Position numbers and translations under genes: made by a program. This document shows positions 10,619 to 63,991 of a DNA stretch of 64,000 nucleotides, one piece after another (the first letter of the stretch is position 1; every line of letters begins with the position of its first letter). This DNA comes from Gammaproteobacteria bacterium (GTDB lineage: Bacteria; Pseudomonadota; Gammaproteobacteria; Eutrophobiales; Eutrophobiaceae). The notes below the pieces were generated by a model. That model had not been told where the DNA came from. It saw only the letters and a list, made by a program, of their open reading frames with translations, and searched no databases. The stretch lies in contig OZ244905.1 of the NCBI GenBank assembly GCA_965221695.1, positions 3,072,001-3,136,000 of the forward strand, in the 5' to 3' direction.

Positions 10619-10770
10619 GGGAAACTCTGAACAAGTCCATCCTGGACTTGTCAGAGTACGGAAAACAAAAATGCGATTTTTGTTTTCCTCACAATATCAA
10701 TGCCTTACAGTCATTGATATTGCCGATACATCCTTGTATCGTAGGAACCTCTGACTTTATCAGAGGTTCC
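10619..10770 (+). mobile_element. 152-bp five-hairpin MITE-like element, copy A
   Basis: Ends GGGAAACTCTGA...TCAGAGGTTCC, flanked by TTA/TTA; near-identical to 13075-13226 and 57573-57724. Confidence 0.9.
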
Positions 10771-12950: not shown

Positions 12951-13032
12951 GTAACCTCTGATTAAGTCAGAGCTTCCAACGGTACAGGGATGTGCTCTCA
13001 CAAGTCCCGGATGGACTGAATCATGTCTTCCC
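12951..13032 (-). repeat. Degenerate, internally deleted derivative of the 152-bp element (~82 bp)
   Basis: GTAACCTCTGATTAAGTCAGAGCTTCC + ACGGTACAGGGATGT + CTCTCACAAGTCCCGGATGGACT..CTTCCC aligns to both ends of the element; the central hairpins are missing. Confidence 0.7.
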
Positions 13033-13074: not shown

Positions 13075-13226
13075 GGAACCTCTGATTAAGTCAGAGGTTC
13101 CTACGATACAAGGATGTATCGTCAATATCAATGACTGTAAGGCATTGATATTGTGAGGAAAACAAAAATCGCATTTTTGTTTTCCGTACTCTGACAAGTC
13201 CAGGATGGACTTGTTCAGAGTTTCCC
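13075..13226 (-). mobile_element. 152-bp five-hairpin MITE-like element, copy B
   Basis: Reverse complement of copy A with 2 differences; flanked by TCA/TCA. Confidence 0.9.
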
Positions 13227-13256: not shown

Positions 13257-16200
13257 CTAAAACAGAAAATCCGACGCATCCAGACCGGCGCGGTCAAAGT
13301 CTTCCAATTCCACTATGCCGCCGCCGTGCTCCGTAAGATCCAAGACCACATTTGTTCCCTCCGTTGTAACATTGAGTGCGGTAAAATCTGCTATGTCAAA
13401 ATCGCGCAGATCGATTTTATCTTCTTCATCGCCGAAGTCTCTGATTATGTCATTTCCATGACCTGGAGAAAACCTGAAAATATCTACGCCTTCACCTCCC
13501 CTAAGTCTGTCATCGCCGTCACCACCAAACAGAGTGTCCGCACCTAGGCCACCGGAGAGATAATCATTGCCGCTTCCGCCTTCCAACCAATCGTCTCCTG
13601 CATTGCCATATAATTCATCATTACCTTCGCCGCCGTGTAGTGTGTCTGCGCCTGCATCGCCTTGCAACCAATCATTACCTTCGTCACCACTCAGTGAGTC
13701 CGCGCCTGTACCGCCTTCCAACCAATCATTATCTTCATCGCCGTGCAGTGTGTCTGCGCCTGCGCCACCATAAAGCGAATCAGAGCCGGTTCCGCCGTTC
13801 AGTATGTCATCTCCATTGCCGCCATGCAGTGAGTCTCTATCAGAGTAACCATGCAAGATATCCGTACCGCCGTTGCCCTTTATGGTGTTTCTGGATTCGT
13901 CCCCTGTCAGTGTATCTGCGTAGCTGCTGCCGATAATATCCTCGAAATCTCTGATAGTATCTCCTGTCGCATGTCCGCCGGAGACCTCATTGGTCAACAG
14001 ATTTACCGAGACGCCTGCATTCGACGATGCATAGGAGAGAGTATCAAGGCCACTGCCACCGTCCAGGATGTCCGCGCCGGCTCCACCTTCCACCTTATCT
14101 AAGCCACGCCCGCCCTCAATCACGTTGCTCCCATCATCTCCGGTCAGCGTATCCCAGTGCGAGCTGCCGATAATATGCTCGACATCTTGAAAACTATCCC
14201 CTTGCGCGTGGCCGCCGGAGGCTTTATTTGTACGCAGGTTCACCTTGACACCCGAGTTTGACCCTGCGTAAGAAACGGTATCATCGCCACTACCGCCGTC
14301 CAAGGTGTCGCTGCCCTCGTTGCCAAGCAGGATATCATCGCCGGCGCCACCAATAAGCGTGTCTGTGCCGGCATTGCCCCAAATGATATTATTTCTGTCA
14401 TCGCCGGTCAGTGTATCCGCGTGTTCACTGCCGATAATGTTTTCGACACTCAGGATACTATCCCCCTCCGCATCCCCACCAGAGGCCCCGCCAGTTTGCA
14501 AGTTCACAATGACGCCCAGGCTCGACCCGGTATAGGAAACGGTATCATCGCCTTCGCCACCGTCCAGGATGTCCGCGCCGCCGCCGCCTTGCAACTGGTC
14601 ATCGCCTTCGTCGCCGAGCACGGTGTCCGTGCCGGCATCGCCATGAAGCCGATCATTGCCGGTTCCGCCATTCAGTATGTCATCGCCATCGCCGCCATAC
14701 AGTTCATCCCAACCAGTGTAACCATCCAAGGTGTCTGCGCCGCCGTTGCCCCTAATGATGTTGTTGTCTTCATTCCCCGTCAGTGTATCTGCGCGCTCGC
14801 TGCCGATAATGTTCTCGGCATTCAGGATATTATCCCCCTCCGCCTCCCCGCCAGAGCTCTCGCCAGTTTGCAGGTTGACAATGACGCCCAAGTTCGATCC
14901 GGAATAGGAAACTGTATCATAACCGCTGCCGCCGTCCAGGATGTCTGCGCCAGCGCCGCCTTCCAGCTTGTCATTGCCAGCCGAGCCATTTATCACGTTG
15001 TTAGCATCATCGCCGGTCAACGTATCCTCGTGCAAGCTGCCGATAATATTCTCGAACCCCAGGATCTTATCCCCTTCCGCCTCCCCGCCAGATCCCTCGC
15101 CAGTTTGCAGGTTGACAATGACGCTAGCATCTGCCCATACGTAGGAAACAGTATCATTACCTGCGCCACCGTCCAGGATATCGGCGCCGTCAAAGCCCCG
15201 GATGACGTTGTCGCCGTCATCTCCAGTCAGTATATCCGCGTGGTCGCTGCCGAAAATATGTTCTATCCCCTGTATGGTATCTCCTGTGCCATGACCGCCA
15301 GAGACTTCATTAGTGTCCAGGTTTACCGTGACGCCAGCGTCTGACGTTCTATAAGAAACGGTATCATCGCCGTCGCCGCCATCCAGAGCATCGCTGCCTT
15401 CACTACCGATCAGTAAATCATCGCCACTACCACCATTCAAAATGTTATCACCATTGTCACCCAGCAACCAGTCATCACCATCGCCGCCATTCAGGATATC
15501 ATCTCCTTCGCCACCCACCAGCCAGTCATTGCCGTCGCCGCCGTCCAGGGTGTCTGCTCCAGGACCGCCCTTCAGGGTGTCCCGCCCTTCGCCACCGTCC
15601 AGAATATCGTGACCGTCGCCACCCTCAATTTCATCATTGCCGTTGCCGCCCTCCAAGGTGTCGTTACCCTCGTCACCGAACAGCGCATCATAACCTTCGC
15701 CGCCTTCCAGGGTGTCAGCGCCATTGCCACCGTATAGGCTGTCCCAGCCACCGTTACCTTTGATGATGTTGTTGCCGTCATCACCTGCTAGCGAATCCCT
15801 AGCCTCACTGCCGATAATATGTTCAAACCCTTGGACAGAAAACTCTGTCCTAAACCCATAGTAAAAGCTGGCTTTACCCGTATTCAGGTTTATTATGATT
15901 CCCGTATTCGATCCTGCATAGGAAACGGTATCCACACCTCCACCGCCATCCAGAGTGTCTTCACCGCCGTTACCATTGATGACGTTGTCGCCGTCATCTC
16001 CAGTCAGTATATCCGCGTGCTTACTACCGATAATATGCTCGACACCACGGATACGATCTCCCTCCGCATAACCGCCGAAACCCTCGCCAGTTTGTAGGTT
16101 CGCTATGACACCCTCTCTAGACCCTGCATAGGAAACGGTATCCGTACCCGCGCCGCCATCCAGGGTATCTGCGCCGGGACCGCCATCCAGCCAGTCCTCA

Positions 16201-19200
16201 CCATCACCGCCAGCGAGTGAGTCCGCGCCAAGACCGCCATCCAGTTGGTCATTCCCGCCACCACCAGCAAGTGAGTCCCTGCCAGTGCCGCCAATCAGCT
16301 TATCACTGCCTGTTCCACCTTGAAGGACGTCGTCTCCCACACCACCATCCAGTTGGTCATCGCCCTCGCCGCCGTCCAAGGTATCCGCGCCTGAGTCACC
16401 ATCCAGCCAGTCATCGCCCCCACCGCCATCCAGAATATCCGCGCCGGAGTCGCCAATCAGTTTGTCATTACCGCTCCCGCCTTGAAGCATGTCGTCACCC
16501 AGACCGCCATCCAGTTGGTCATTACCGCCTGCGCCATCCAAAATATCCGCGCCCGCATTGCCTCGGATGTCATTGATTTCATTATCTCCAGTCAGCGTAT
16601 CTGCGTGCTCACTGCCGATAATATGCTCGAAACCCTGGATGCTATCGCCCTTCGCATACCCGCCAGAGGCTTCGCCAGTTTGCAGGTCCACTGAGACGCC
16701 CGCCGTTGACCGCGTATAGGAGACAGTATCATCGCCGGCGCCGCCGTCCAGGGTGTCGCCGCCCGCGCCGCCCGCCAGCCAATCATTACCAGTCCCACCC
16801 CGTAGTATGTCGTCTCCCTGACTCCCATCCAGCCGGTCATCACCGCCGGCGCCAGTGAGTGTGTCTGCCCCCGCATTACCCTGGAGGTCATTGTTTTCAT
16901 CATTCCCGGCCAGCGTATCCGCGTGTTCGCTGCCGATAACATGCTCAAAATCACGGATACTATCCCCCTCCGCATACCCGCCAGAGGCTTCGTCAGAATC
17001 CAGGTCTACAATGACGCCTGCGTTCGAGTCTGCATAGACAAGGGTATCGTCACCTTCGCCACCGTCCAGAATGTCCGTGCCGTCTCCGCCATTTATCCAG
17101 TCAGCGCCATATCCGCCGATGATTATGTTATTGTCACTGCTTCCGATCAGCGTGTCCGCGTATTCGCTGCCGGTTACGTGTTCGAAACTTCGGATACTAT
17201 CTCCCGCGGCGTGACCTCCTGAAGCTTCATCAGTTTGCAGGTTTACAGTAACGCCCCTGTTCGATCTGGCATAGGAAACAGCATCATCCCCGTCGCCGCC
17301 ATCCAAGATGTCCGCGCCCTCGCCCCCATCCAGTTCGTCATCGCCGTCGTCGCCGACCAGGGTATCCGCGCCGGGGCCACCATCCAGCCGGTCATTGCCA
17401 ATCCCACCCTGTAGCATGTCGTCTGCCCAACCACCATCCAACCAATCATCACCGTCTCCACCAACCAGGCTGTCCTCGCCTTCAGCGCCATCCAACCTGT
17501 CATCGCCTGCGCCACCATCCAGCCGGTCATTGCCGTCCCCGCCGTCCAGCCGATCATCGCCTGCGCCGCCCTCCATCTCGTCATTACCGCGCCCGCCGTC
17601 CAACAGGTCATTGCCGTCGCCACCCAGAAGTCTGTCATCGCCCTCTTCGCCGTGAAGTTCGTCCTGGCCAGCGCCACTATCCAGGGTATCTGCGTCGTTG
17701 CCGCCGATGATGACATTGTCGCGGTCATTTCCGGTCAACATATCCGCGCTTTCGCCGCCGATAATGTGTTCGAAACCCCGTATAGTATCTCCTGTAGCAT
17801 CACCGCCGGATACTTCATCTGTATGCAGGTTCACCGTAACGCTCGCAATCGACCATGCATAGGAGATGGTATCGTCGCCCTCTCCGCCGTCCAGAATATC
17901 GGCGCCAGCGCCGCCATGCAGCAGGTCATCACCGGCATTGCCTGTGAGCGTGTCATCGCCTCCATCGCCCCGGATGACATTGTCACCGTCATCACCGGTC
18001 AGGATATCCGCAAACTCACTGCCGATAATATGTTCGAAATTACGAATACGATCCCCTGTCGCATCGCCGCCGGATACTTCATCAGTATGCAGGTTCACCG
18101 TAACGCCCGCAATCGATCCTACATAGGAGATGATATCGTTGCCCTCTCCACCGTCCAGAATATCGGCGCCAGCGCCGCCATGCAGCAGGTCATCACCGTT
18201 CCCGCCTTCAATCACGTTGCCTCCATGATCGCCGGTCAGCCAATCTCCGCCCTCGCCACCGATAATATTTTCGAAACCCTGAATTGTATCCGACCTCCAA
18301 AACCCCTCATCGGCTCTGCCATCGCCCAGGTCAACTATCACGCTCCAGGGCCATCCGGCATAGGAAACGGTATCATTACCCAGTCCTCCATCCAGGGTGT
18401 CCGCGCCACCGAAGCCCATGATGACGTTGTCGCCGTCATCCCCAGTCAGTATGTCTGCGTGGAAGCTGCCGAAAATATTCTCGAACCCCTGGATACTATC
18501 CCCCTCCGCATCCCCACCGGAGGCTTCGCCGGAACTCAGGTTTACCGTGACGCCTGCGTTCGATCCGACATACGCAACGGTATCTTCACCGGCGCCGCCG
18601 TCCAGGGTATCCGCGTTGCCGTTGCCCGTGATGACATTGTCACCGTCATCTCCGGTCAGTGTATCTGCGTGCATGCTGCCTATAACATTCTCAAACCCCT
18701 GGATACTATCCCCCTCTGCATGCCCGCCGGAGGCTTCGTCTGCGCGCAGGTCCACCATAACGCCCGCGTTTGACTCTGTATAGGAAAGCGTATCAACGCC
18801 ACCACCGCCGTCCAGGATATCCGCGCCGGCGTTGCCAACAATGAAGTTATCTCCATCAGTCCCGGTCAATGTATCCGCGTAGTCGCTGCCGATAACATGT
18901 TCAAAACCCCGAATGGTATCTCCTTCCGCATACCCACCTGCAGCTTCATCAGTTTGCAGGTTTACTGTCACACCGGCGTTCGATGATGAATAGGAAACGA
19001 GATCATCGCCCTCGCCGCCGTCCAGGACATCGTTGCCCGGGCTGCCGTACAGATCATCATCGCCGTTGCCACCCCACAGCTTGTCATCCCCGTCGCCACT
19101 GCGAAGGCTGTCATCCCCATCGCCGCCATCCAGAGTTTTTGCGCCATCGCCGCTAATCAGTGTGTCATTGCCGGCGCCTCCCCACAACTCGCTGTCTCCC

Positions 19201-22043
19201 ACACCGTCCAATAGCCGGTCATTGCCAGTCCCACCCCAGAGCCGGTTGTTTCCATCTCCGCCATCCAGCTCATCATAGCCGTCACCACCGTCCAGGGTGT
19301 CATCGCCATCGCCGGCAGATAGAATGTCATGGCCAGCCCCACCCCAGATACGGTTATTCCCATCTCCGCCATCCAGCGTATCATTGCCATCACCACCGTC
19401 CAGGGTGTCATTGCCCTCGCCGCCCAACAGGTTGTCATAACCATCGCCGCCGTAAAGCTGATCGTCACCGCCATTCCCATCCAAGTTGTCGTTGCCTTTA
19501 TCGCCGAACAGAATGTCGTCGCCGTTACCACCCGACAGCCTGTCATTGCCGCTATCGCCGTACAGGGCATCATCACCATCTTCACCTGTCAAATGATCCG
19601 AGCCGGTCTCACCTTTCAGCCGGTCATTTCCGGCGCCGCCAATCAGTTGATCACTACCGCTGCCACCAACCAAGGTGTCGGCGCCACCATTGCCCCTGAT
19701 GACGTTCCTACCCCCATCCCCGAACAGTGTATCCGAGCGCTCGCTGCCGACAATGTGTTCAACTCCACGGATAGTATCTCCTGCTGCGTGCCCGCCGTAG
19801 ATTTGACCCGTATCCAGGTTCACTGTCACGCCCGCGTATGACCCTGCATAGGAAACTGTATCATCGCGTCCATTGCCACCGTCCAGGATGTCCGCGCCGT
19901 CACCGCCTTCCAGCCAGTCATTACCGTCGCCGCCCTCAATCACATTGTTTCCTTCATCGCCTGTGAGCGTATCCTCGCGCCGGCTCCCGATAATGTGCTC
20001 GACTCTACGGATAGTGTCCCCTGCCGCATCCCCGCCAGAGGCCTGGCCCGTACTCAAGTTCACCGTCACGCCCCTATTTGACTCGGCATAGGAAGCGGTA
20101 TCATCGCCCTCACCACCGTCCAGGAAGTCTGCGCCGGGACCACCTTGCAGCCAATCGTTGCCAGTTTCACCCTGTAGCGTGTCCTCTCCCGGGCCGCCAT
20201 CCAGTCGGTCGTTACCGTCGCCGCCGGCAAGTGTATCTGCGCCTCTACTACCCCACAGGTTATTGGTTCCATCATCTCCGGTTAACGTGTCCGCGTGCTC
20301 GCTACCGATAATGTGTTCGACTCCCCGGATACTATCTCCATGCGCATGCCCGCCGGAGGTTTCACCAGTTTGCAGGTTCACCGTTATGCCCGCGGCTGAC
20401 CCTGTATAGGAAATAGTGTCATCGCCCTCGCCGCCATCCAGAATATCCGCGCCAGCCCCGCCAATAAGTCGGTCATCACCGTCAGCGCCACTGAGTGTGT
20501 CCGCTCCTGCATTGCCGTGGATGTCATTGTTTCCGTCATCCCCGGTCAGCGTATCTGCGTGCTCGCTGCCGATTACGTGTTCGAACCCCCGGATACTATC
20601 TCCCTCCGCATCGCCGCCGGAGGCTTCATTAGTACGCAGGTTCACCGTGACGCCCGCGTTCGACTCCCTATAGGAAACGGTATCATTACCCTCGCCACCA
20701 TCCAGGGAGTCTGCGCCGGCGCCGCCTTCCAACCAGTCATCACCGTATCCGCCAATGATGCTGTTGTTGCCGCCATCCCCGGTCAACATATCTGTGTAGT
20801 CGCTGCCGATTACGTGTTCGAACCCCCGGATACTATCTCCCCATGCATAACCGCCAGAGGCTTCATTAGTACGCAAGTTCACCGTGACTCCTCTGTACGA
20901 CTCCGCATAGGAAACAGTATCATCGCCCGCGCCGCCATCCATCCAATCAAAGCCTTCACTGCCGATGATGATGTTGTCGCCGTCATCTCCGATTAGCGTA
21001 TCCGAATCCCTGCTACCGATAATGTTCTCAAATCCCCGGATACTATCTCCCTCTGCATCACCGCCGGAGGCTTCATTAGTGCGCAGGTTCACCGTGACGC
21101 CCCAATCTGACCATGCATAGGAAACGGTATCATTACCCTCGCCGCCGTCCAAAACATCAGCGCCGCGGTTGCCTATAATGACATTATCGCCGTCATCCCC
21201 GATTAACGTGTCATCGTAGTTGCTGCCGATAAGGGTCTCGATATCCCGGAAAGTATCCCCTTCTGCATACCCACCGGAGCCTTCACCATTAAGCAGGTTG
21301 ACTATGACGCCCGCGTTTGACCATGAATAGGTAACAGTGTCATCACCCTCCCCGCCATCGAAAAGATCCATACCGTGGCCGCCCTCCAGCCGGTCATTGC
21401 CGTTGCCACCGTACAGATTGTTGGTTCCCGTTCCACCCACCAGCCGGTCGTTACCGTGTCCACCGTCCAGGTTGTCATCGCCATCACCGCCTTCCAGTTC
21501 GTCATTGCCGCCGCCGCCGTAAAGGTTGTCACTACCGTCTCCGCCCTGAAGCCGGTCATTGCCGCTGCCGCCGTAAAGGTTGTCACTACCGTCTCCGCCC
21601 TGAAGCCGGTCATTACCGTCGCCGCCGTCCAAGGTGTCATCGCCGTTGCCGCCGTCCAACCTGTCTTTGCCGTTACCGCCATTCAGCCGGTCGTTGCCGT
21701 CGCCACCATACAGTCTATCATCGCCCTCGCCACCATCCAGGGTATCATCGCCGTCGCCGCCATACAGGGCATCGTCACCATCGCCACCTTCCAGGGTGTC
21801 ATTACCCGAGTAGCCATACAATACGTCATTGCCGCCTCTGCCTTGCAGGTTGTCATCGCCATGACGGCCTTGCAGGAAGTCATGGTCGTCGTCGCCGATG
21901 TATATCTCCAAGCCATACAGCGAGGCGGTCTTTCCCAAGGCGCTGATCTTTTCTCTCTCCGTCGTGGCTAAGGGTTTTTCATTCTTCTCGGGGCTCGCGA
22001 CGGGGACTTCGGTTTTCAGGTTCGTTTTTATCATTTCAACCAT
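13257..22043 (-). CDS. Giant RTX-type (hemolysin-type) calcium-binding repeat protein, probable T1SS substrate or adhesin
   Basis: Long runs of GGxGxDxLx nonapeptides interleaved with 24 copies of a DTVSYxxSxxGVTVNL..GGxAxGDxIxxxEHIIGS module; C-terminal [24 protein letters not shown] typical of RTX secretion tails; no Sec signal. Confidence 0.92.
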
Positions 22044-26710: not shown

Positions 26711-26737
26711 GGAACCTCTGATTAAGTCAGAGGTTCA
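26711..26737 (-). repeat. Mini single-hairpin form of the 152-bp element, overlapping the ybeY stop
   Basis: GGAACCTCTGA-TTAAG-TCAGAGGTTC; ybeY ends ..EPLT-stop inside it. Confidence 0.8.
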
Positions 26738-29767: not shown

Positions 29768-29844
29768 TGGTGGCTATGGGTGGACTTGAACCACCGACTT
29801 CAGCATTATGAATGCTGCGCTCTAACCAACTGAGCTACATAGCC
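29768..29844 (-). tRNA. tRNA-Met (CAT), elongator type
   Basis: GGCTATGTAGCTCAGTTGGTTAGAGC..TTCATAA..GGTTCAAGTCC..CATAGCCACCA cloverleaf with paired 1-72 and encoded CCA. Confidence 0.93.
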
Positions 29845-30862: not shown

Positions 30863-31921
30863 TTAACTGTTGCGCCGCTGCCTGACCGCTCCGGCGAGGG
30901 ATTCCAGGACCGGTTCGGTCATGTCCCAGGATATGCAGGCATCGGTCACGCTCATGCCGTATTCCATCGATGCAAGGTCTTTCAGCGCCTGTTTTCCGGC
31001 TTTCAGGTTGCTCTCTATCATCACGCCGCAGATGCGTGTTGAGCCGGCTGCCAATTGCCGGCAGATATCCTCGGCAACAACGGCCTGGCGCGCATGGTCC
31101 TTGTTGCTGTTGCCATGGCTGAAGTCCACCATGACCCGGTCCGTAACGTTTGCCGCGCCCAGTTTTTTCGCCGCAGCCTCGATATCTGACTCGGAATAAT
31201 TGGGCCCTTTGGACGCGCCGCGCAAGATCAGGTGGCAACAGTCGTTCCCGGTGGTCGTTACGATCGCGGAAATACCCTGCTTGGTGACTGAAAGGAAATG
31301 GTGTGCGCTTTGTGCGGCGCCGATGGCGTCTATCGCGATCTGTATGTTGCCGTCCGTCCCGTTTTTAAAGCCTACGGGCATCGAGAGTCCCGACGCCAGT
31401 TCCCGGTGTATCTGGCTTTCCGTGGTACGCGCCCCGATCGCGCCCCAGGACACCAGGTCGGCGATGAACTGCGGCGTGATGGTATCGAGAAACTCCGAAC
31501 CGGCCGGTATGCCCATGTTCCCCAGGTCCAGCAGCAGTTTGCGGGCTTTGCGCAGACCGGCATTGATATTGAAACTGTTGTCCAGGTTCGGATCGTTGAT
31601 CAGGCCTTTCCAGCCCACCCTGGTACGGGGTTTTTCGAAATAGACCCGCATGATCACGAGCAGGTCGTCCTGCAGGCGCTCTGCAGCGCCGGCCAGGCGG
31701 CCGGCATAGTCCAGTGCGGCTTCCGGATCATGAATGGAACAAGGCCCGGTTATCACCAGCAGCCGATCATCTTCACCCTTGATGATGGCGCCGGCAGCTT
31801 TGCGGGTGGTGGCCACGAGGTTCGATACCTGTTCGCCGACCGGCAGCTCTTCCATGAGGATGGCAGGCGATACCAGCGGGCGCAGTTCGGCAATTCTTAA
31901 ATCGTCTGTAAGCTGAAACAT
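30863..31921 (-). CDS. aroG: DAHP synthase class I-alpha, paralog 1
   Basis: GPCSIHD, RVYFEKPRT, GWKGL, GARTTESQ, FKNGTDG, DFSHGNS, SVTDAC; allosteric type (aroG/F/H) not determinable. Confidence 0.9.
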   Translation of the reverse strand: MFQLTDDLRIAELRPLVSPAILMEELPVGEQVSNLVATTRKAAGAIIKGEDDRLLVITGPCSIHDPEAALDYAGRLAGAAERLQDDLLVIMRVYFEKPRTRVGWKGLINDPNLDNSFNINAGLRKARKLLLDLGNMGIPAGSEFLDTITPQFIADLVSWGAIGARTTESQIHRELASGLSMPVGFKNGTDGNIQIAIDAIGAAQSAHHFLSVTKQGISAIVTTTGNDCCHLILRGASKGPNYSESDIEAAAKKLGAANVTDRVMVDFSHGNSNKDHARQAVVAEDICRQLAAGSTRICGVMIESNLKAGKQALKDLASMEYGMSVTDACISWDMTEPVLESLAGAVRQRRNS

Positions 31922-35243: not shown

Positions 35244-36298
35244 GAAGACCGCGTGCGGCGCTCCCTGGCGGCTGCTGCGAGTTCACCGATCAACGCTTCG
35301 GAATCGTCCCAGCCCAGGCAAGCATCGGTGATGCTCTGGCCGTAAACAAGTTGCTGACCCGCCTCCGCGTCCTGGCGGCCTTCCTGCAGGTGGCTTTCGA
35401 TCATCACACCGAAGATCCTGCCGTCGCCGTCGCGCAACTGACTGCAGATGTCGGCGCCTACCTGCAGTTGATTTTTAGGTTGTTTCCGGCTGTTCGCGTG
35501 GCTGAAATCCACCATCACGCGCACCGGGAGTTTTGCCGCGGTCAACTCGGCCGCGGCGGAGTCGATACTCCAACGGTCAAAGTTGGGCCGTTTACCGCCA
35601 CGCAGTATGATGTGGCAGGCATCGTTGCCGCTGGTGGTATAGATCGCCGACGTGCCTTCCTTACGCATGGACAGGAAGTGGTGCGGGACTCTTGCGGCGC
35701 CGATTGCGTCCACGGCAATCTTCACCGAGCCATCCGTCCCGTTCTTGAACCCGACCGGACAGGACAGCCCCGAGGCCAGTTCCCGGTGCACCTGGCTCTC
35801 CGTGGTGCGCGCGCCGATGGCGCCCCAGCTTACCAGGTCGGTAACGTATTGGGGGGTGATGATGTCGAGAAACTCGGTGCCTGCCGGGACTCCCATTTCA
35901 TTCAGGTCCAACAGCAGCGAGCGCGCAAGCCGCACCCCCTTGTTGATGTGAAAACTGTTGTCCAGGTCGGGGTCGTTGATCAGGCCTTTCCAACCCACGG
36001 TGGTCCTGGGTTTTTCGAAGTATACGCGCATGACGATGAGCAGGTCGTCGCGGTACTTTTCACTCAAGGTTTTCAGGCGACCGGCGTATTCTCTGGCCGC
36101 GCCGACATCGTGTATCGAACAGGGGCCGGCCACTACCATCAGGCGGTCATCCGCGCCATTCAGCAAGTCGCTAATCGCCTGCCGGGCTTGCCAGGTGGTC
36201 TCGGCTGCGGCCTCACTGATGGGGATCTCCTCACAGATCTCCACGGGTGGGGTAACAGCCTTGATGGAGGCGATGCGTAAGTCGTCGGTTGCGTGCAT
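35240..36298 (-). CDS. aroG: DAHP synthase class I-alpha, paralog 2
   Basis: Same conserved motifs as paralog 1 (GPCSIHD, KPRTTVGWKG, DFSHANS, SITDAC); 4-nt overlap with the phoX start. Confidence 0.9.
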   Translation of the reverse strand: MHATDDLRIASIKAVTPPVEICEEIPISEAAAETTWQARQAISDLLNGADDRLMVVAGPCSIHDVGAAREYAGRLKTLSEKYRDDLLIVMRVYFEKPRTTVGWKGLINDPDLDNSFHINKGVRLARSLLLDLNEMGVPAGTEFLDIITPQYVTDLVSWGAIGARTTESQVHRELASGLSCPVGFKNGTDGSVKIAVDAIGAARVPHHFLSMRKEGTSAIYTTSGNDACHIILRGGKRPNFDRWSIDSAAAELTAAKLPVRVMVDFSHANSRKQPKNQLQVGADICSQLRDGDGRIFGVMIESHLQEGRQDAEAGQQLVYGQSITDACLGWDDSEALIGELAAAARERRTRSS

Positions 36299-37954: not shown

Positions 37955-38031
37955 TGGTGGGCCCGGTAGGACTTGAACCTACGACCAATGGATTATGAGT
38001 CCACTGCTCTAACCAACTGAGCTACAGGCCC
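37955..38031 (-). tRNA. tRNA-Ile2 (CAT, lysidine-modified type)
   Basis: GGGCCTGTAGCTCAGTTGGTTAGAGC..CTCATAA..GGTTCAAGTCC..CGGGCCCACCA; Ile2-like acceptor stem and position after rpoD, as for E. coli ileX. Confidence 0.88.
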
Positions 38032-39883: not shown

Positions 39884-39906
39884 AAGCGTAAGAATCCGGT
39901 TATTAA

Positions 39907-39934
39907 GGGAAACTCTGACTCAATCAGAGGTTCC
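39907..39934 (+). repeat. 28-bp mini form of the element in the rpoD leader
   Basis: GGGAAACTCTGA-CTCAA-TCAGAGGTTCC flanked by TAA/TTA. Confidence 0.85.
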
Positions 39935-40055
39935 TTAGTAGAAAATTTACCTGCCAAACAAAAAAGTAACGAACCATCTGATTTAATCGCTGATGGGCCC
40001 GTTAAAACCAAAACCTCTATTATAGCATATAAAATTAAACAAGCCCTTAATTTAA

Positions 40056-40207
40056 GGGAAGCTCTGAACAAGTCCATCCTGGACTTGCCAGAGCGCGCAA
40101 AACAAAAATGCGATTTTTGTTTTGCTTACAAATTCAATGACTTATTGTCATTAAATTTGGCGACACATCCCTGTGCCGCAGTAACCTCTGACTTAATCAG
40201 AGGTTCC
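40056..40207 (+). mobile_element. 152-bp five-hairpin MITE-like element, divergent copy C, overlapping the dnaG 3' end
   Basis: Same length and ends as copy A; 23 substitutions by hand alignment; flanked by TAA/TAA. Confidence 0.9.
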
Positions 40208-41959
40208 TAAGGTCTTATTTTTGTCATTTGAGTAATGCCGGCGCAGTTGCGTTTTGGCTTCCTCGGAAAGTTTGCTGGGGGGGGCGCGTGCGATGTCTCG
40301 GATGGACTGTCTGGCTTTGATTGCTTTCAGCTTTTCCACCCGGTCGACAAATTCACGCTCCAGGTCGAAAGTTTCGTCCTCCGGCAGGCTAGGAGCGGAG
40401 GCCAGTTCATTCAGGCGTGTTTCATAGCGGCCGCCGCGCCAGTGTTCCAGTATGCCGGCGCAGGTGATTTCCGGATTTGAGTGAATCAGTGAGACAAGCT
40501 CCCGTACAAAATCGGCGCCGGGGACGGCCAGGTCGGAAAGCTGTTCGGGATCTTCCACCAGCATCGCTAACCCCGGTTTATTCAGGATATACGCGATCAG
40601 GGCGCTGATATCGCCTGTTTTTTCCCGTTGCTGCGCAAGGCGGGGTTTGCCGCCGCGCCGCGCTGCGCCCGAGCGGTAATCCTGCAACAGTTTGAGTAAC
40701 CCGTCCATGTCGATTTGCGCTATCTCAGCAGCTTCTTGGAGCATTAACTGGCGCAGGCCGCTGCCGGGCATTTTGGCAAGGTGGGGCAAGATCATATCCA
40801 GGAATGTCGCTCTGTCTTCTCTTGTGGCAACCCCGGTCCTGGCTTGGATTGAAGCCAGCAGGAAATCGGATAAAGGCGCGGTTCTTTCTTCAGAACAGAA
40901 CTTTTCGGCTCCGTGTTGCCTGATAAAGCTGTCGGGATCGTGTCCCTCAGGCATGAAGTTGAATAAAGCCTGACGGCCCTCGCGTAACTGAGGGATCGCG
41001 ATCTCCAGGGCTCTCCACGCTGCTTTTTTGCCGGCTTCGTCGCCATCGAAACAAAAAATAAGCCGGCTGGTAACGCGGTACAATTTCTCCAGATGGCGCT
41101 CGGTAACAGCAGTCCCAAGGGTGGCTACTGTGTTTTTAATGCCGTGTTGGGCCAGCGCGACGACATCCATATAGCCTTCCACCACATACAGTGATTCCGG
41201 CTGTTTCCTGTTGTCGAGCGCCTGGTACAAGCCGTACAATTCACGACTCTTATGGAACAGGGGTGTTTCCGGGGAATTAAGATATTTTGGCGTATCCTCA
41301 CCTAGCACTCGCCCGCCGAAACCGATTACCCGCCCTCTTTGATCGCGGATCGGGAACATAATGCGGTCGCGAAAGCGGTCGTAATAACCTTCGTTGGAGC
41401 CGCGTGCGATCAGTCCTGCTTCAAGCAGACGAGCCTTAGCCCCGTCGGACCCGCCCAGAGCATTCAAGAGTCGTTGCCATCCCGGCGGAGCATAGCCGAT
41501 CTCATAATCCTCTATGACTGCGCCGCTGATGCCGCGCGCCTTCAGGTAGTCCGCGGCTCTGCCTTTGTCCTCTTGCAACTGCTTTCGGTAGAGCCGCGTG
41601 GCCTGTTGCAGCAACTCATACAACTCGTCGTGCGACCTTGTCGCGGGTAGGTAGCCCGCCTCGCGCGGGATTTCCAGGCTATAGCGCCCGGCAAGTTCTT
41701 CGATGGCCTCGACAAAACCCAGCCTGTTAAACTCCATGACAAAGCCGATTACGGTGCCGCTGGCGCCGCAACCAAAACAGTGGTAGAACTGCTTGTCCTG
41801 GCTTACCGTAAATGAGGGTGTTTTCTCCTCATGAAACGGGCACAGGGCCTGGTGGTTTTTACCGGCCTTGCGCAACGGGACATAGCTGTCTATGACCTCG
41901 ACGATATCGGCCCGGGCGAGTAAGTCATCGATGAAAGCTTGTGGTATTTTGCCCGCCAT
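40193..41959 (-). CDS. dnaG: DNA primase
   Basis: CPFHEEKTPSF..HCFGC zinc finger, KYLNSPET, VEGYMDV, FDGDEAG, DPD. Confidence 0.98.
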   Translation of the reverse strand: MAGKIPQAFIDDLLARADIVEVIDSYVPLRKAGKNHQALCPFHEEKTPSFTVSQDKQFYHCFGCGASGTVIGFVMEFNRLGFVEAIEELAGRYSLEIPREAGYLPATRSHDELYELLQQATRLYRKQLQEDKGRAADYLKARGISGAVIEDYEIGYAPPGWQRLLNALGGSDGAKARLLEAGLIARGSNEGYYDRFRDRIMFPIRDQRGRVIGFGGRVLGEDTPKYLNSPETPLFHKSRELYGLYQALDNRKQPESLYVVEGYMDVVALAQHGIKNTVATLGTAVTERHLEKLYRVTSRLIFCFDGDEAGKKAAWRALEIAIPQLREGRQALFNFMPEGHDPDSFIRQHGAEKFCSEERTAPLSDFLLASIQARTGVATREDRATFLDMILPHLAKMPGSGLRQLMLQEAAEIAQIDMDGLLKLLQDYRSGAARRGGKPRLAQQREKTGDISALIAYILNKPGLAMLVEDPEQLSDLAVPGADFVRELVSLIHSNPEITCAGILEHWRGGRYETRLNELASAPSLPEDETFDLEREFVDRVEKLKAIKARQSIRDIARAPPSKLSEEAKTQLRRHYSNDKNKTLGTSD

Positions 41960-51338: not shown

Positions 51339-51582
51339 GAAATCGGTAATAATGCAGCAGATTAGAGTCATTAGCGCGGCCATAGAGAGAGCCACTTAGG
51401 ATATATGTCGGGATGGAACAGAAATAGCTCGGTGCGCTGATGAAGCTGGGAAACAGTTCGTCCCCTCATGCAACAGCAAACGCCGCCCCGACAAATACCC
51501 CGCGGTCTGCCGGAACAACGCCTCCGTTAATCGATGTTGAATCTGTTCAATTAATTCTGGGGACACTACTGTTGCCCGTATA

Positions 51583-57477: not shown

Positions 57478-57572
57478 ATTAACTCCATTGACATGTTGTA
57501 CTCTTCTTACTCGCCGCAGACAGTTACTGGATGTCCGTTTCTTATCGGAACGGGGATAGTTTAAGATATTTA

Positions 57573-57724
57573 AGGAAACTCTGAACAAGTCCATCCTGGA
57601 CTTGTCAGAATACGGAAAACAAAAATGCGATTTTTGTTTTCCTCACAATATCAATGCCTTACAGTCATTGATATTGACGATACATCCCTGTATCGTAGGA
57701 ACCTCTGACTTAATCAGAGGTTCC
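57573..57724 (+). mobile_element. 152-bp five-hairpin MITE-like element, copy D
   Basis: 3 differences from copy B; flanked by TTA/TTA. Confidence 0.9.
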
Positions 57725-57907
57725 TTAAATGTGAGTAAGAAGTCAGGACTGCGCCGCTGCTGGAAACGCGTCCCTTTTCCAGCGCGGGAATGGTTCTGAT
57801 GCGCAGAGATTGGATCTTTGCCGGCCTGGCAGGGCTTGTATTCCTGGTTCCATCTGTTTTAATCTGGCAAATTCCTTAACACTACGATACAACGCAACCG
57901 GGGCGGC

Positions 57908-63963: not shown

Positions 63964-63991
63964 GGAACCTCTGACTTAATCAGAGGTTCCC
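63964..63991. repeat. 28-bp mini form of the element
   Basis: TAA|GGAACCTCTGA-CTTAA-TCAGAGGTTCCC|TAA. Confidence 0.85.

Follow-up and report, generated by a model that had tools for sequence, protein, structure and literature searches.

MITEs are usually regarded as inert DNA that is defined by its ends. The bcr1 repeat of the Bacillus cereus group is described as a mobile-element-like repeat of ~155 bp with short direct-repeat flanks, which is transcribed and in which compensatory changes preserve a multi-stem RNA structure (PMC3184786). A repeat of MITE type with hairpins kept by compensation thus has a precedent. The Correia elements of Neisseria and the ERIC elements of enterobacteria are MITE-type repeats whose folded transcripts are reported to alter mRNA fate, with RNase III or RNase E as the nucleases named, and Correia elements are further reported to carry IHF sites (PMC10969869). 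As to mobility, IS5 is described as having the target motif YTAR and a 4-bp duplication (PMC5009759).

The repeat family considered here was met in a 64,000-nt stretch of DNA, called the window. It occurs in another phylum than bcr1. Its parent IS is identified and CsrA is a candidate for its partner, whereas neither a parent IS nor a protein partner is named in the accessible text on bcr1 (PMC3184786). Correia and ERIC elements fold mainly end to end via their terminal repeats, whereas the present element is made of five local hairpins (H1-H5). With IS5-group insertion sequences and MITEs it shares the GGAA start, 15-17 of 19 end positions and the 4-bp YTAR duplications, but its interior is a chain of covarying hairpins rather than the remnant of an IS deletion, and each end is itself palindromic. 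Like REP/BIME sequences with RAYT, it combines short palindromic modules into mosaics; unlike them, it ends in terminal inverted repeats and is flanked by target duplications, in a genome that lacks a Y1/RAYT gene. Several short GGA-loop hairpins, and an H4 that corresponds to the CsrA SELEX consensus, recall the CsrB, RsmY and RsmZ RNAs. Each of these, however, is a single regulated gene, whereas ~100 dispersed copies with no promoter found are present here, their Rfam scores lie far below cut-off, and H2, H3 and H5 are without GGA loops. Against the view of MITEs as inert, the interior of this family consists of five hairpins that are kept by paired changes across several bacterial families and show a measurable preference for one strand.

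The element and its IS5-type ends

Copy C, a 151-nt member of subfamily II, lies between two 4-bp target duplications (Table 1). The initial annotation had placed it at 40056-40207; the end stands, whereas the start falls one base too early, G40056 being the last base of the left duplication. The site is empty in two relatives (G007 and G001), an insertion polymorphism, and a 5-kb contig spans copy C unchanged, with short contigs breaking at repeats, when the contigs of four sequencing runs are set against the window. The terminal hairpin pattern has eight matches in the window compared with 0.00 expected from 100 shuffles, far beyond chance. Copy C differs from copy A (10619-10770) at 23 of 152 positions without indels, a count that recomparison reproduced exactly, and copy D likewise differs from copy C at 23 positions.

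Table 1. Positions, within the window, of copy C with its hairpins, of related elements and of a transposase relic
Feature	Position	Strand	Basis or remark
MITE copy C, 151 nt, subfamily II	40057-40207	+	+ strand runs from IRL-like end to IRR-like end
Left 4-bp target-site duplication, TAAG	40053-40056		flank comparison
Right 4-bp target-site duplication, TAAG	40208-40211		flank comparison
H1, 15-pair hairpin: left terminal repeat and inner inverted copy	40061-40094	-	predicted fold, pair changes
H2, 13-pair A/T-rich hairpin	40097-40125	-	double changes in 7/13 pairs
H3, 11+2-pair hairpin	40129-40159	-	double changes in 7/11 pairs
H4, 8-pair hairpin, CsrA consensus on minus strand	40160-40179	-	double changes in 6/8 pairs
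H5, 27-nt palindrome: two abutting 11-bp terminal repeats, 5-nt spacer	40181-40207		pattern match
MITE copy A, subfamily I	10620-10770	+	sequence match
MITE copy B, subfamily I	13076-13226	-	sequence match
MITE copy D, subfamily I, TTAA on both flanks	57574-57724	+	sequence match
Degenerate short form: only H5, H4 and part of H1	12951-13019	-	sequence match
Solo 27-nt H5-type palindrome, 122 nt upstream of copy C	39908-39934		pattern match
Solo 27-nt H5-type palindrome	26711-26737		pattern match
Solo 27-nt H5-type palindrome	63964-63990		pattern match
IS5-family transposase relic, 28 residues, resembles parent IS	51456-51539	-	75% identity to residues 72-99, E=2.3e-5

With ~90 full copies in the genome (G000; 89 near-full copies), each ~150 bp long, intergenic and without an ORF, the element is very probably an IS5-type non-autonomous MITE. 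The sequence GGAA-N-CTCTGA, present at its left end and, in reverse complement, at its right end, makes up the terminal inverted repeats. Identical 4-bp flanks border 64 of 88 full copies, compared with 1 of 88 in the control, and 49 of these 64 have the YTAR motif. E. coli IS5 agrees with the MITE end at 15-16 of 19 positions of its left terminus. A parent IS of 1149 bp, flanked by TTAA, is present in a congener (G001, L213:1357-2505); its ends match those of the MITE at 17/19 and 16/19 positions, and its reading frame scores 305.7 bits against the NCBIfam IS5 family transposase model (cut-off 140) and also matches Pfam DDE_Tnp_1 and DUF772. It came to light when the first 30 DDE_Tnp_1 loci of relatives were scanned for MITE ends, of which only one (L080) fitted. 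The parent IS is absent from G000 itself, where only relics are present. First-look candidates are most numerous in G000 (240) and in another genome, G008 (177), which also give the near-identical matches, yet DDE_Tnp_1 has no match in either genome.

Anatomy and comparison indicate that the element moves as double-stranded DNA. The transposase, of the IS5-family DDE type, would act in trans, and insertion into YTAR sites would create the 4-bp duplications. The element is a chain of short hairpin modules, in which H1 and H5 are terminal repeats paired with inner inverted copies. The parent IS has neither the internal hairpins of the MITE nor, at the matching place, the TCC loop motif that corresponds to the CsrA motif, and H2-H4, together with the three further hairpins that the 222-nt form has beyond the standard set, are cargo not derived from it. 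Short, standard and long forms occur as a mosaic together with solo units. The 27-nt H5 unit is found alone 97 times in the genome, with identical flanks in 39 cases and in none of the control. Plasmids, phages and viral contigs gave no match to the element. On the minus strand H1 is followed by a U-rich tail; the terminator scan did not call H1, and it flags a related solo unit as terminator-like.

Compensated pairs and strand preference

In the 152-nt numbering, five base pairs differ on both sides between copies A and C: pair 6-39 of H1 (A-T to G-C), pair 43-69 of H2 (G-C to C-G), pairs 77-101 and 78-100 of H3 (T-A/A-T to A-T/T-A) and pair 109-120 of H4 (T-A to C-G). At the base of H4, pair 105-124 is A-T in copy D, G-C in copy C and a C-T mismatch in copy A. 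The five paired changes first proposed are therefore real, as is a sixth, which holds with respect to copy D. Four pairs are uncompensated in copy C, namely 12-33 (A-C), 80-98 (C-A), 108-121 (A-C) and 127-151 (T-C), and pair 7-38 is C-A in copy D. It had been noted that + strand A-C mismatches account for three of the four uncompensated pairs of copy C and for one in H1 of copy D, and this reading of the mismatches was correct.

The covariation persists in a larger alignment, of 133 copies from other genomes. Here 36 of 60 stem pairs have changed on both sides, compared with 16.8±1.9 in shuffles, and none of 500 shuffles reaches the observed number, which upholds the earlier proposal that structure is conserved beyond the ends. 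Paired cells amount to 93.7% in the same copies and to 87.8% after shuffling. The covariation score is 0.168, as opposed to 0.071 in shuffles (0 of 500 reach the observed value) and no more than 0.048 with the structure shifted along the sequences. Private changes per site in young clusters are about half as frequent in stems (128/840) as at unpaired sites (65/215; p=7e-7). The compensated differences separate entire subfamilies and genomes, and across species and families it is compensatory change that has preserved the stems.

The mismatches that remain are not distributed evenly between the two wobble classes. On the + strand, mismatched cells of the 133 copies from other genomes comprise 194 A-C and 87 G-T. 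Counted by pair, the numbers are 36 and 14 (p=0.003); replication gives 35 and 14 in the other genomes (p=0.004) and 30 and 13 in G000 alone (p=0.014), these p-values being approximate because the cells and pairs counted share ancestry. The A-C excess also appears in cluster consensus sequences and is replicated in two disjoint sets of copies, and parsimony yields 186 A-C against 108 G-T events. It is marked in H2 (43 versus 17 events) and absent from H5 (24 versus 25). An A-C mismatch on the + strand becomes a G-U or G-T wobble on its complement. It is therefore the minus strand that folds, as the initial annotation had said; the bias it had described in a few copies persists in the larger sample, in G000 and in other genomes alike. 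Among the most recent private changes the bias is not significant (37 versus 29). Unpaired sites lean in the opposite direction, which makes a mutational strand bias unlikely.

The energetic consequences point the same way. The mismatches actually present reduce folding energy by 5.25 kcal/mol on the + strand, compared with 2.98 kcal/mol on the minus strand, and the greater folding loss falls on the + strand in 74 copies and on the minus strand in 18. For the same 50 sequences, RNAalifold gives -43.6 kcal/mol and 45 pairs on the minus strand, compared with -30.4 kcal/mol and 29 pairs on the + strand. Mismatches have thus been filtered such that the minus strand retains G-U/G-T wobbles. Since G-T wobbles stabilize DNA hairpins too, the bias alone cannot tell RNA from single-stranded DNA. 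The hairpins are probably under selection on the minus strand, and it is rather likely that selection acts on a folded single strand of what is otherwise a cut-and-paste element.

A CsrA consensus on the minus strand

The TCC loops of H1 and H4, which read GGA on the minus strand, are 98-100% conserved (for H1, in 201 distinct copies). In copy C the H1 loop corresponds to + strand TCC at 40077-40079, and the loop and closing pairs of H4 read ACA-N-GGA-UGU on the minus strand at 40165-40174; the N beside GGA varies and the H4 stem covaries. This arrangement resembles the SELEX consensus described for CsrA, RUACARGGAUGU with GGA in a hairpin loop (PMC4347634), a likeness that was recognized after the fact and not predicted beforehand. 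GGA lies in the loop of H4 in the predicted fold, the stem of which is backed by the doubly changed pairs. Of 220 copies, 155 carry the full 12-mer in the minus strand of H4 and 178 the ACA-N-GGA-UG core; copy C itself matches 11 of 12 consensus positions. Of the 103 full 12-mers in the genome, 96 are inside these elements, all of them on the minus strand. The 151-nt form has two GGA-loop hairpins and the 222-nt form up to five.

The genome encodes CsrA (108.8 bits, cut-off 73), with a core protein of 52 residues. Over the whole genome no match to the RsmY, RsmZ or CsrB models exceeds the cut-off. The best RsmY match (20 bits) was rejected, as it coincides with the 3' end of a cold-shock-like gene and the terminator that follows. 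The element itself is below cut-off for the Rfam Csr/Rsm models (clan CL00106), at 12.4-13.1 bits for RsmY (cut-off 57) and 12-13.1 for RsmV (cut-off 100). In E-value mode, three long copies match these models with E-values of 0.43-3 and match nothing in Rfam significantly, the best hit being Xanthomonas sX7 with 22.5 bits against a cut-off of 55. At the gathering threshold Rfam finds only two tRNAs in the whole window. In a scan for the GacA box, all 12 intergenic matches listed carry at least two mismatches; one GGA-rich stretch was rejected because it lies opposite the sense strand of a coding gene. The element showed no conserved promoter, a single weak match being present on the + strand in subfamily I only. 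Genes in tandem around the element are co-oriented with its + strand in 25 versus 15 cases in G000 and in 18 versus 8 elsewhere, or 43 versus 23 combined (p=0.019, with crude ORF-based gene calls); the minus strand is thus not preferentially co-oriented with the genes nearby, and the trend runs the other way.

The best explanation of the whole, to be held tentatively, is that of an IS5-type MITE with a minus-strand hairpin RNA that binds CsrA. The selected molecule would be a minus-strand transcript, in which H4 would present the high-affinity CsrA/RsmA consensus with GGA in a 4-nt loop, while H1 and the extra modules would offer further GGA loops and H1 with its U-rich tail may end the transcript. 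Such an RNA would bind CsrA either as one of a dispersed set of sites or as a sponge-like multi-hairpin molecule. The match of motif and loop makes CsrA a possible partner of the hairpins, although a somewhat doubtful one; because H2 and H3 covary and show the bias without a GGA loop, the fold in its entirety is not accounted for by CsrA. Transcription, CsrA binding and a benefit to element or host are what we infer from this arrangement. No link between CsrA and a MITE was found in the literature searched. Were CsrA the partner, a mobile element would supply nearly all perfect CsrA consensus sites of this genome, a new route to rewire or titrate a global post-transcriptional network, and its copies would be candidate CsrA antagonists that have gone unrecognized in many uncultured gammaproteobacteria. 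A further step, which we consider rather unlikely, is that of a transposon-borne CsrA decoy, whose cargo would be the minus-strand CsrA-binding hairpins and whose stems and GGA loops would be preserved because spread or retention depends on binding. Each burst of transposition would then scatter ~100 high-affinity CsrA sites through the transcriptome, so that the global regulator would be titrated or would gain new target genes, and in lineages without a recognizable CsrB/Rsm RNA the copies could act as the antagonists that are missing.

Competing readings of the hairpins

The hairpins might instead serve mobility at the DNA level, as cruciforms, or as hairpins in DNA that is single-stranded for a short time, which help to pair the ends or load transposase; only intact copies would then multiply, so that master copies would change by compensation. 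The separation of subfamilies and genomes by compensated differences does imply selection on proliferating copies, and H1 and H5 as terminal repeats paired with inner copies, the apparent movement of the 27-nt H5 unit by itself and the stabilizing effect of G-T wobbles on DNA hairpins are all consistent with such a role. So is an IHF-like site in H3 in 96 of 220 copies, the + strand of H3 fitting the IHF consensus in many copies. A cruciform, however, involves both strands, and no asymmetry between A-C and G-T would be expected, yet one is observed. Copies are orientated 44:44 relative to replication (origin and terminus from GC skew), the transposase of the parent IS does not need hairpins or a TCC loop that the IS lacks, and short forms without H2 and H3 still have target duplications. 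We consider a DNA-level role unlikely on this evidence. The bias to one strand and the conserved loops on covarying stems would also fit an undescribed mobile system with a single-stranded DNA intermediate, a prospect that the initial annotation had raised; hairpins would then be recognized on one strand in the manner of IS200/IS605 or REP/RAYT. Those systems are not known to make terminal inverted repeats or target duplications, both of which the element has, the latter at YTAR sites, and they show an orientation bias relative to replication that is not seen in the 44:44 distribution. Moreover, a matching IS5-family DDE parent exists, and the Y1 transposase (PF01797) has no match in G000 (96.85% complete), the control finding it in 6 of 14 reference genomes. 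The prospect is not supported, and such a system is highly improbable here.

Neutral upkeep of palindromes would require no selected fold: template switching would copy one arm to the other, so that a change in one arm would be undone or matched, and common descent of the copies would produce a spurious strand bias. Short stems with small loops are a favoured substrate for template switching, and those of the element are of this kind; such repair would also give fewer private changes in stems than at unpaired sites, and the recent changes are without significant bias. We nevertheless hold this to be improbable, as it leaves unexplained the highly conserved loops beside variable ones, the A-C excess in two disjoint sets together with the opposite lean of unpaired sites, and the exact fit of H4 to a 12-nt protein-binding consensus. 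Equally improbable in our view is an RNA-level effect without CsrA, whereby the hairpins would be terminators, RNase III/E targets or stabilizers in host transcripts and GGA would be incidental or would serve another RNA-binding protein. The minus-strand bias agrees with it, the tandem orientation suggests that it matters in transcripts which way round the element lies, H1 with its U-rich tail and the terminator-like solo unit fit a terminator, and RNA-level effects are reported for Correia and ERIC elements (PMC10969869). It does not account for a match to all 12 consensus positions in H4 of most copies, and in copy A the terminator scan called nothing terminator-like. The MITE with a CsrA-binding minus strand remains the reading that we prefer. 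As to the transposition machinery itself, the 27-nt solo, short, standard and long forms provide a natural series on the requirements of a DDE transposase.

Mobility and IS5 parentage

Comparison of gap lengths indicates that copy C is an insertion: the orthologous intergenic gap is ~106-110 nt in two relatives (G007 and G001) as against 317 nt in G000, the genome holding the window, and the G007 site resembles an unduplicated target. Identical 4-bp flanks border 64 of the 88 full copies in G000, with a one-base difference in 17 more, whereas four bases further out only 1/88 control flanks are identical. The target duplications are TTAA (33 copies), CTAA (7), TTAG (7), CTAG (2) and a few others, and the IS5 target motif is described as YTAR (PMC5009759, in part). 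Insertions at orthologous sites are not conserved between genomes, a point against the reading of a selected transcript given below. In a further relative, G008 (C4, locus L207), the region orthologous to 39900-40220 carries a different insert of ~418 nt at the copy C site, with short tandem-like repeats.

At 15-16 of 19 positions the ends of the element agree with those of E. coli IS5 as given in the K-12 record. Relatives were screened for DDE_Tnp_1, then for one candidate protein, and the congener G001 holds a 1149-bp insertion sequence with TTAA on both flanks, ends equal to those of the element at 17/19 and 16/19 positions, and a 319-codon open frame that scores 305.7 bits on the NCBIfam model 'IS5 family transposase'; broken copies of this parent occur in G022 and G014. 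G000 and G008 gave the most first-look candidates among the genomes searched (240 and 177), the copies listed for them being the most alike, and neither has a match to DDE_Tnp_1. What remains of a transposase in G000 is a truncated DUF772 frame and a short relic within the window, and a search of this genome for a Y1 transposase found none. It seems that a burst was followed by loss of the parent insertion sequence, or else that the enzyme came from outside.

In light of the duplications, the empty site, the matching IS5-type ends and parent, and the lack of Y1, it was concluded that the element is a non-autonomous IS5-group MITE, and its mobility is that of an ordinary IS5-type MITE. The interpretation in the initial annotation is supported for the conserved fold and strand bias considered below, whereas the separate single-strand mobile system that it envisaged is unsupported.

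Conservation of the fold and strand bias

Re-comparison of copies A and C reproduced every detail of the hand alignment on which the claim of a selected fold was based, with 23/152 differences and zero indels. Both partners had changed in five pairs, and in a sixth, at the foot of H4, when copy D is the reference; uncompensated changes give A-C on the + strand in three of four cases in copy C and in one in D. The sample was enlarged to 220 near-full copies, all distinct, of which G000 contributed 88 and loci of ~20 other genomes 132. Covariation was assessed on 133 copies aligned with MAFFT, 129 of them taken from other genomes' loci and four from the window. There, conservation of the fold rather than of the ends alone holds: paired cells amount to 93.7% (87.8% when shuffled), 36/60 pairs have double changes (shuffled, 16.8±1.9), and the covariation score is 0.168 as against 0.071 for shuffled and 0.023-0.048 for slid controls, values attained in 0/500 shuffles. 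Double changes affect 6-7 pairs in every helix, and in distant genomes the stems of H2, H3 and H4 are wholly different in sequence with pairing kept. Private changes in young clusters are fewer in stems (128 changes over 840 site-clusters) than at unpaired sites (65 over 215; p=7e-7), and therefore the stems are guarded after insertion too, through selection or arm-to-arm repair.

Strand-symmetric mutation is expected to leave equal numbers of A-C and G-T mismatches in the stems. The strand-biased wobbles noticed in the few window copies persist in the enlarged sample as an A-C excess on the + strand, seen in each of H1-H4 and absent from H5 (24 vs 25), which comprises two transposase sites.

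Stem mismatches on the + strand; cells and pairs are not independent, owing to common ancestry, and the tree is built on only 151 nt
Sample	Unit	A-C	G-T
133-copy alignment	cells	194	87
133-copy alignment	pairs (p=0.003)	36	14
G000	cells	96	57
G000 alone	pairs	30	13
Other genomes	pairs	35	14
All copies	pairs	40	13
45 cluster consensus sequences	cells	120	79
Tree	parsimony events	186	108

The + strand loses 5.25 kcal/mol to mismatches, as against 2.98 kcal/mol for the minus strand; the larger energy loss falls on the + strand in 74 copies and on the minus strand in 18, and it is equal in 23. For one set of 50 sequences, used for both strands, RNAalifold gave -43.6 kcal/mol and 45 pairs, with all five hairpins, on the minus strand, as against -30.4 kcal/mol and 29 pairs on the + strand, a gap part of which may come from the separate alignment of the two strands. 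Unpaired sites, serving as control, lean the opposite way to the stems, and the copies in G000 are divided 44:44 with respect to replication direction. Among the newest private changes the counts are A-C 37 and G-T 29 only. We regard the strand bias as real with moderate confidence.

A CsrA-like motif on the minus strand

In 201 distinct copies the interior is most conserved (98-100%) at the TCC in the loops of H1 and H4; the base beside each TCC is variable, and the other loops are 75-89% conserved. On the minus strand each TCC becomes GGA, and H4 becomes ACA-N-GGA-UGU, its stem covarying and its 4-nt loop containing the GGA. This is the CsrA SELEX consensus, RUACARGGAUGU, for which ACA and GGA are reported to be invariant, with GGA placed in the loop of a hairpin (PMC4347634, in part). 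The complete 12-mer occurs in 155/220 copies, its core in 178/220 and a related H1 loop motif in 177/220; 96 of the 103 occurrences of the 12-mer in G000 are inside these elements, every one on the minus strand. The match was noticed post hoc, and the chance of the 12-mer in a 151-nt element, by our estimate ~7e-5, is uncorrected for the many motifs that might be recognised. The three hairpins added in long forms likewise have GGA in or next to their loops on this strand, and the parent insertion sequence has no CsrA-like motif at the corresponding place. Against the CsrA reading, H2 and H3 covary and show the strand bias although neither carries GGA in its loop.

The CsrA motif and the wobble bias were observed independently of each other, and both point to the minus strand. 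Our tentative reading, held at somewhat less than even confidence, is of an IS5-group MITE whose selected folded molecule is a putative minus-strand transcript, with CsrA as its likely, predicted partner. A single csrA gene is present in G000, in which no RsmY, RsmZ or CsrB could be recognised. The Bacillus repeat bcr1 has a compensated multi-stem fold and is transcribed (PMC3184786, in part), and Correia and ERIC elements are known to act at the RNA level (PMC10969869, in part); literature linking CsrA with MITEs was not found in the one library covered.

Orientation between genes is contrary to the simple prediction of a useful site in mRNAs: between tandem genes the + strand is more often the co-oriented one (25 vs 15 in G000, 18 vs 8 elsewhere; combined, 43 vs 23, p=0.019, on crude ORF-based gene calls). 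Minus-sense copies within transcription units may be harmful and hence removed, an effect that would even so act at the RNA level and depend on orientation. A conserved promoter was searched for in the element and none was found. A sigma-70-like match in copy A (9/12 positions) has a 17-nt spacer, extends over H3 and H4 and faces outward via H5; it occurs in subfamily I and is not called in copy C. The IHF consensus is matched by the + strand of H3 in 96/220 copies and by the minus strand in 1.

Family forms and features of the window

Copy A has 307 blastn matches in the single 3,539,060-bp contig of G000, 89 of them spanning at least 135 nt. Compensated changes in all five hairpins set two main subfamilies apart. 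Short forms, missing H2 and H3, consist of H1+H4+H5 or H1+H5, and long forms (~222 nt) carry three further hairpins between H3 and H4, the family as a whole being a mosaic built from hairpin modules. Consisting of two 11-bp terminal repeats and a 5-nt spacer, the 27-nt H5 unit appears to be a mobile element by itself, unusually small: G000 has 97 solo units, with identical 4-bp flanks in 39 as against 0 in the control. The H5-type pattern has 8 matches in the window (0.00 expected), four of them outside full copies and three of these solo.

The element is present in 22/41 genomes searched, among them 17 of the 22 other congeners and, from outside the genus, four (one of the same family, three of other families); named records containing it are uncultured gammaproteobacterial MAGs, and the plasmids, phages and viral contigs searched gave zero matches.

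Features in the window and, where marked, in contig C1 of G000
Feature	Position	Strand	Remark
MITE copy A	10620-10770		full copy
IHF consensus, example	10693-10707	+	in H3
Sigma-70-like match	10714-10742	+	in copy A
H5-type hairpin, 27 nt	at 12951		part of degenerate short form, not solo
MITE copy B	13076-13226	-	full copy
Degenerate direct repeats	13489-21743
Solo H5-type hairpins, 27 nt	26711-26737, 39908-39934, 63964-63990
tRNA genes, two	29771-29844, 37958-38031	-
Similar stretches, 300 nt	31216-31515, 35596-35895
MITE copy C	40057-40207		151 nt; + strand folds to five consecutive hairpins, H1-H5
Relic of parent IS5-family transposase	51456-51539	-	28 residues
MITE copy D	57574-57724		full copy
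Long forms (C1)	1137680-1137911, 1316929-1317155, 382595-382824		loci L228-L230
Partial copy near csrA (C1)	1649605-1649690		locus L231; H1, H2 and part of H3

The partial copy near csrA lies ~340 nt downstream of the gene with its + strand co-oriented, which may be coincidence. One contig of run X2 links 57554 to 57725 with 15 other letters between and may represent a population variant without copy D, on weak evidence, as its shorter side has only 21 letters. Elsewhere, the very long run of direct repeats has a 27-nt periodicity and higher-order units of ~210-300 nt and probably codes for a giant repeat protein, and the two 300-nt stretches, 4380 nt apart, are 72% alike.
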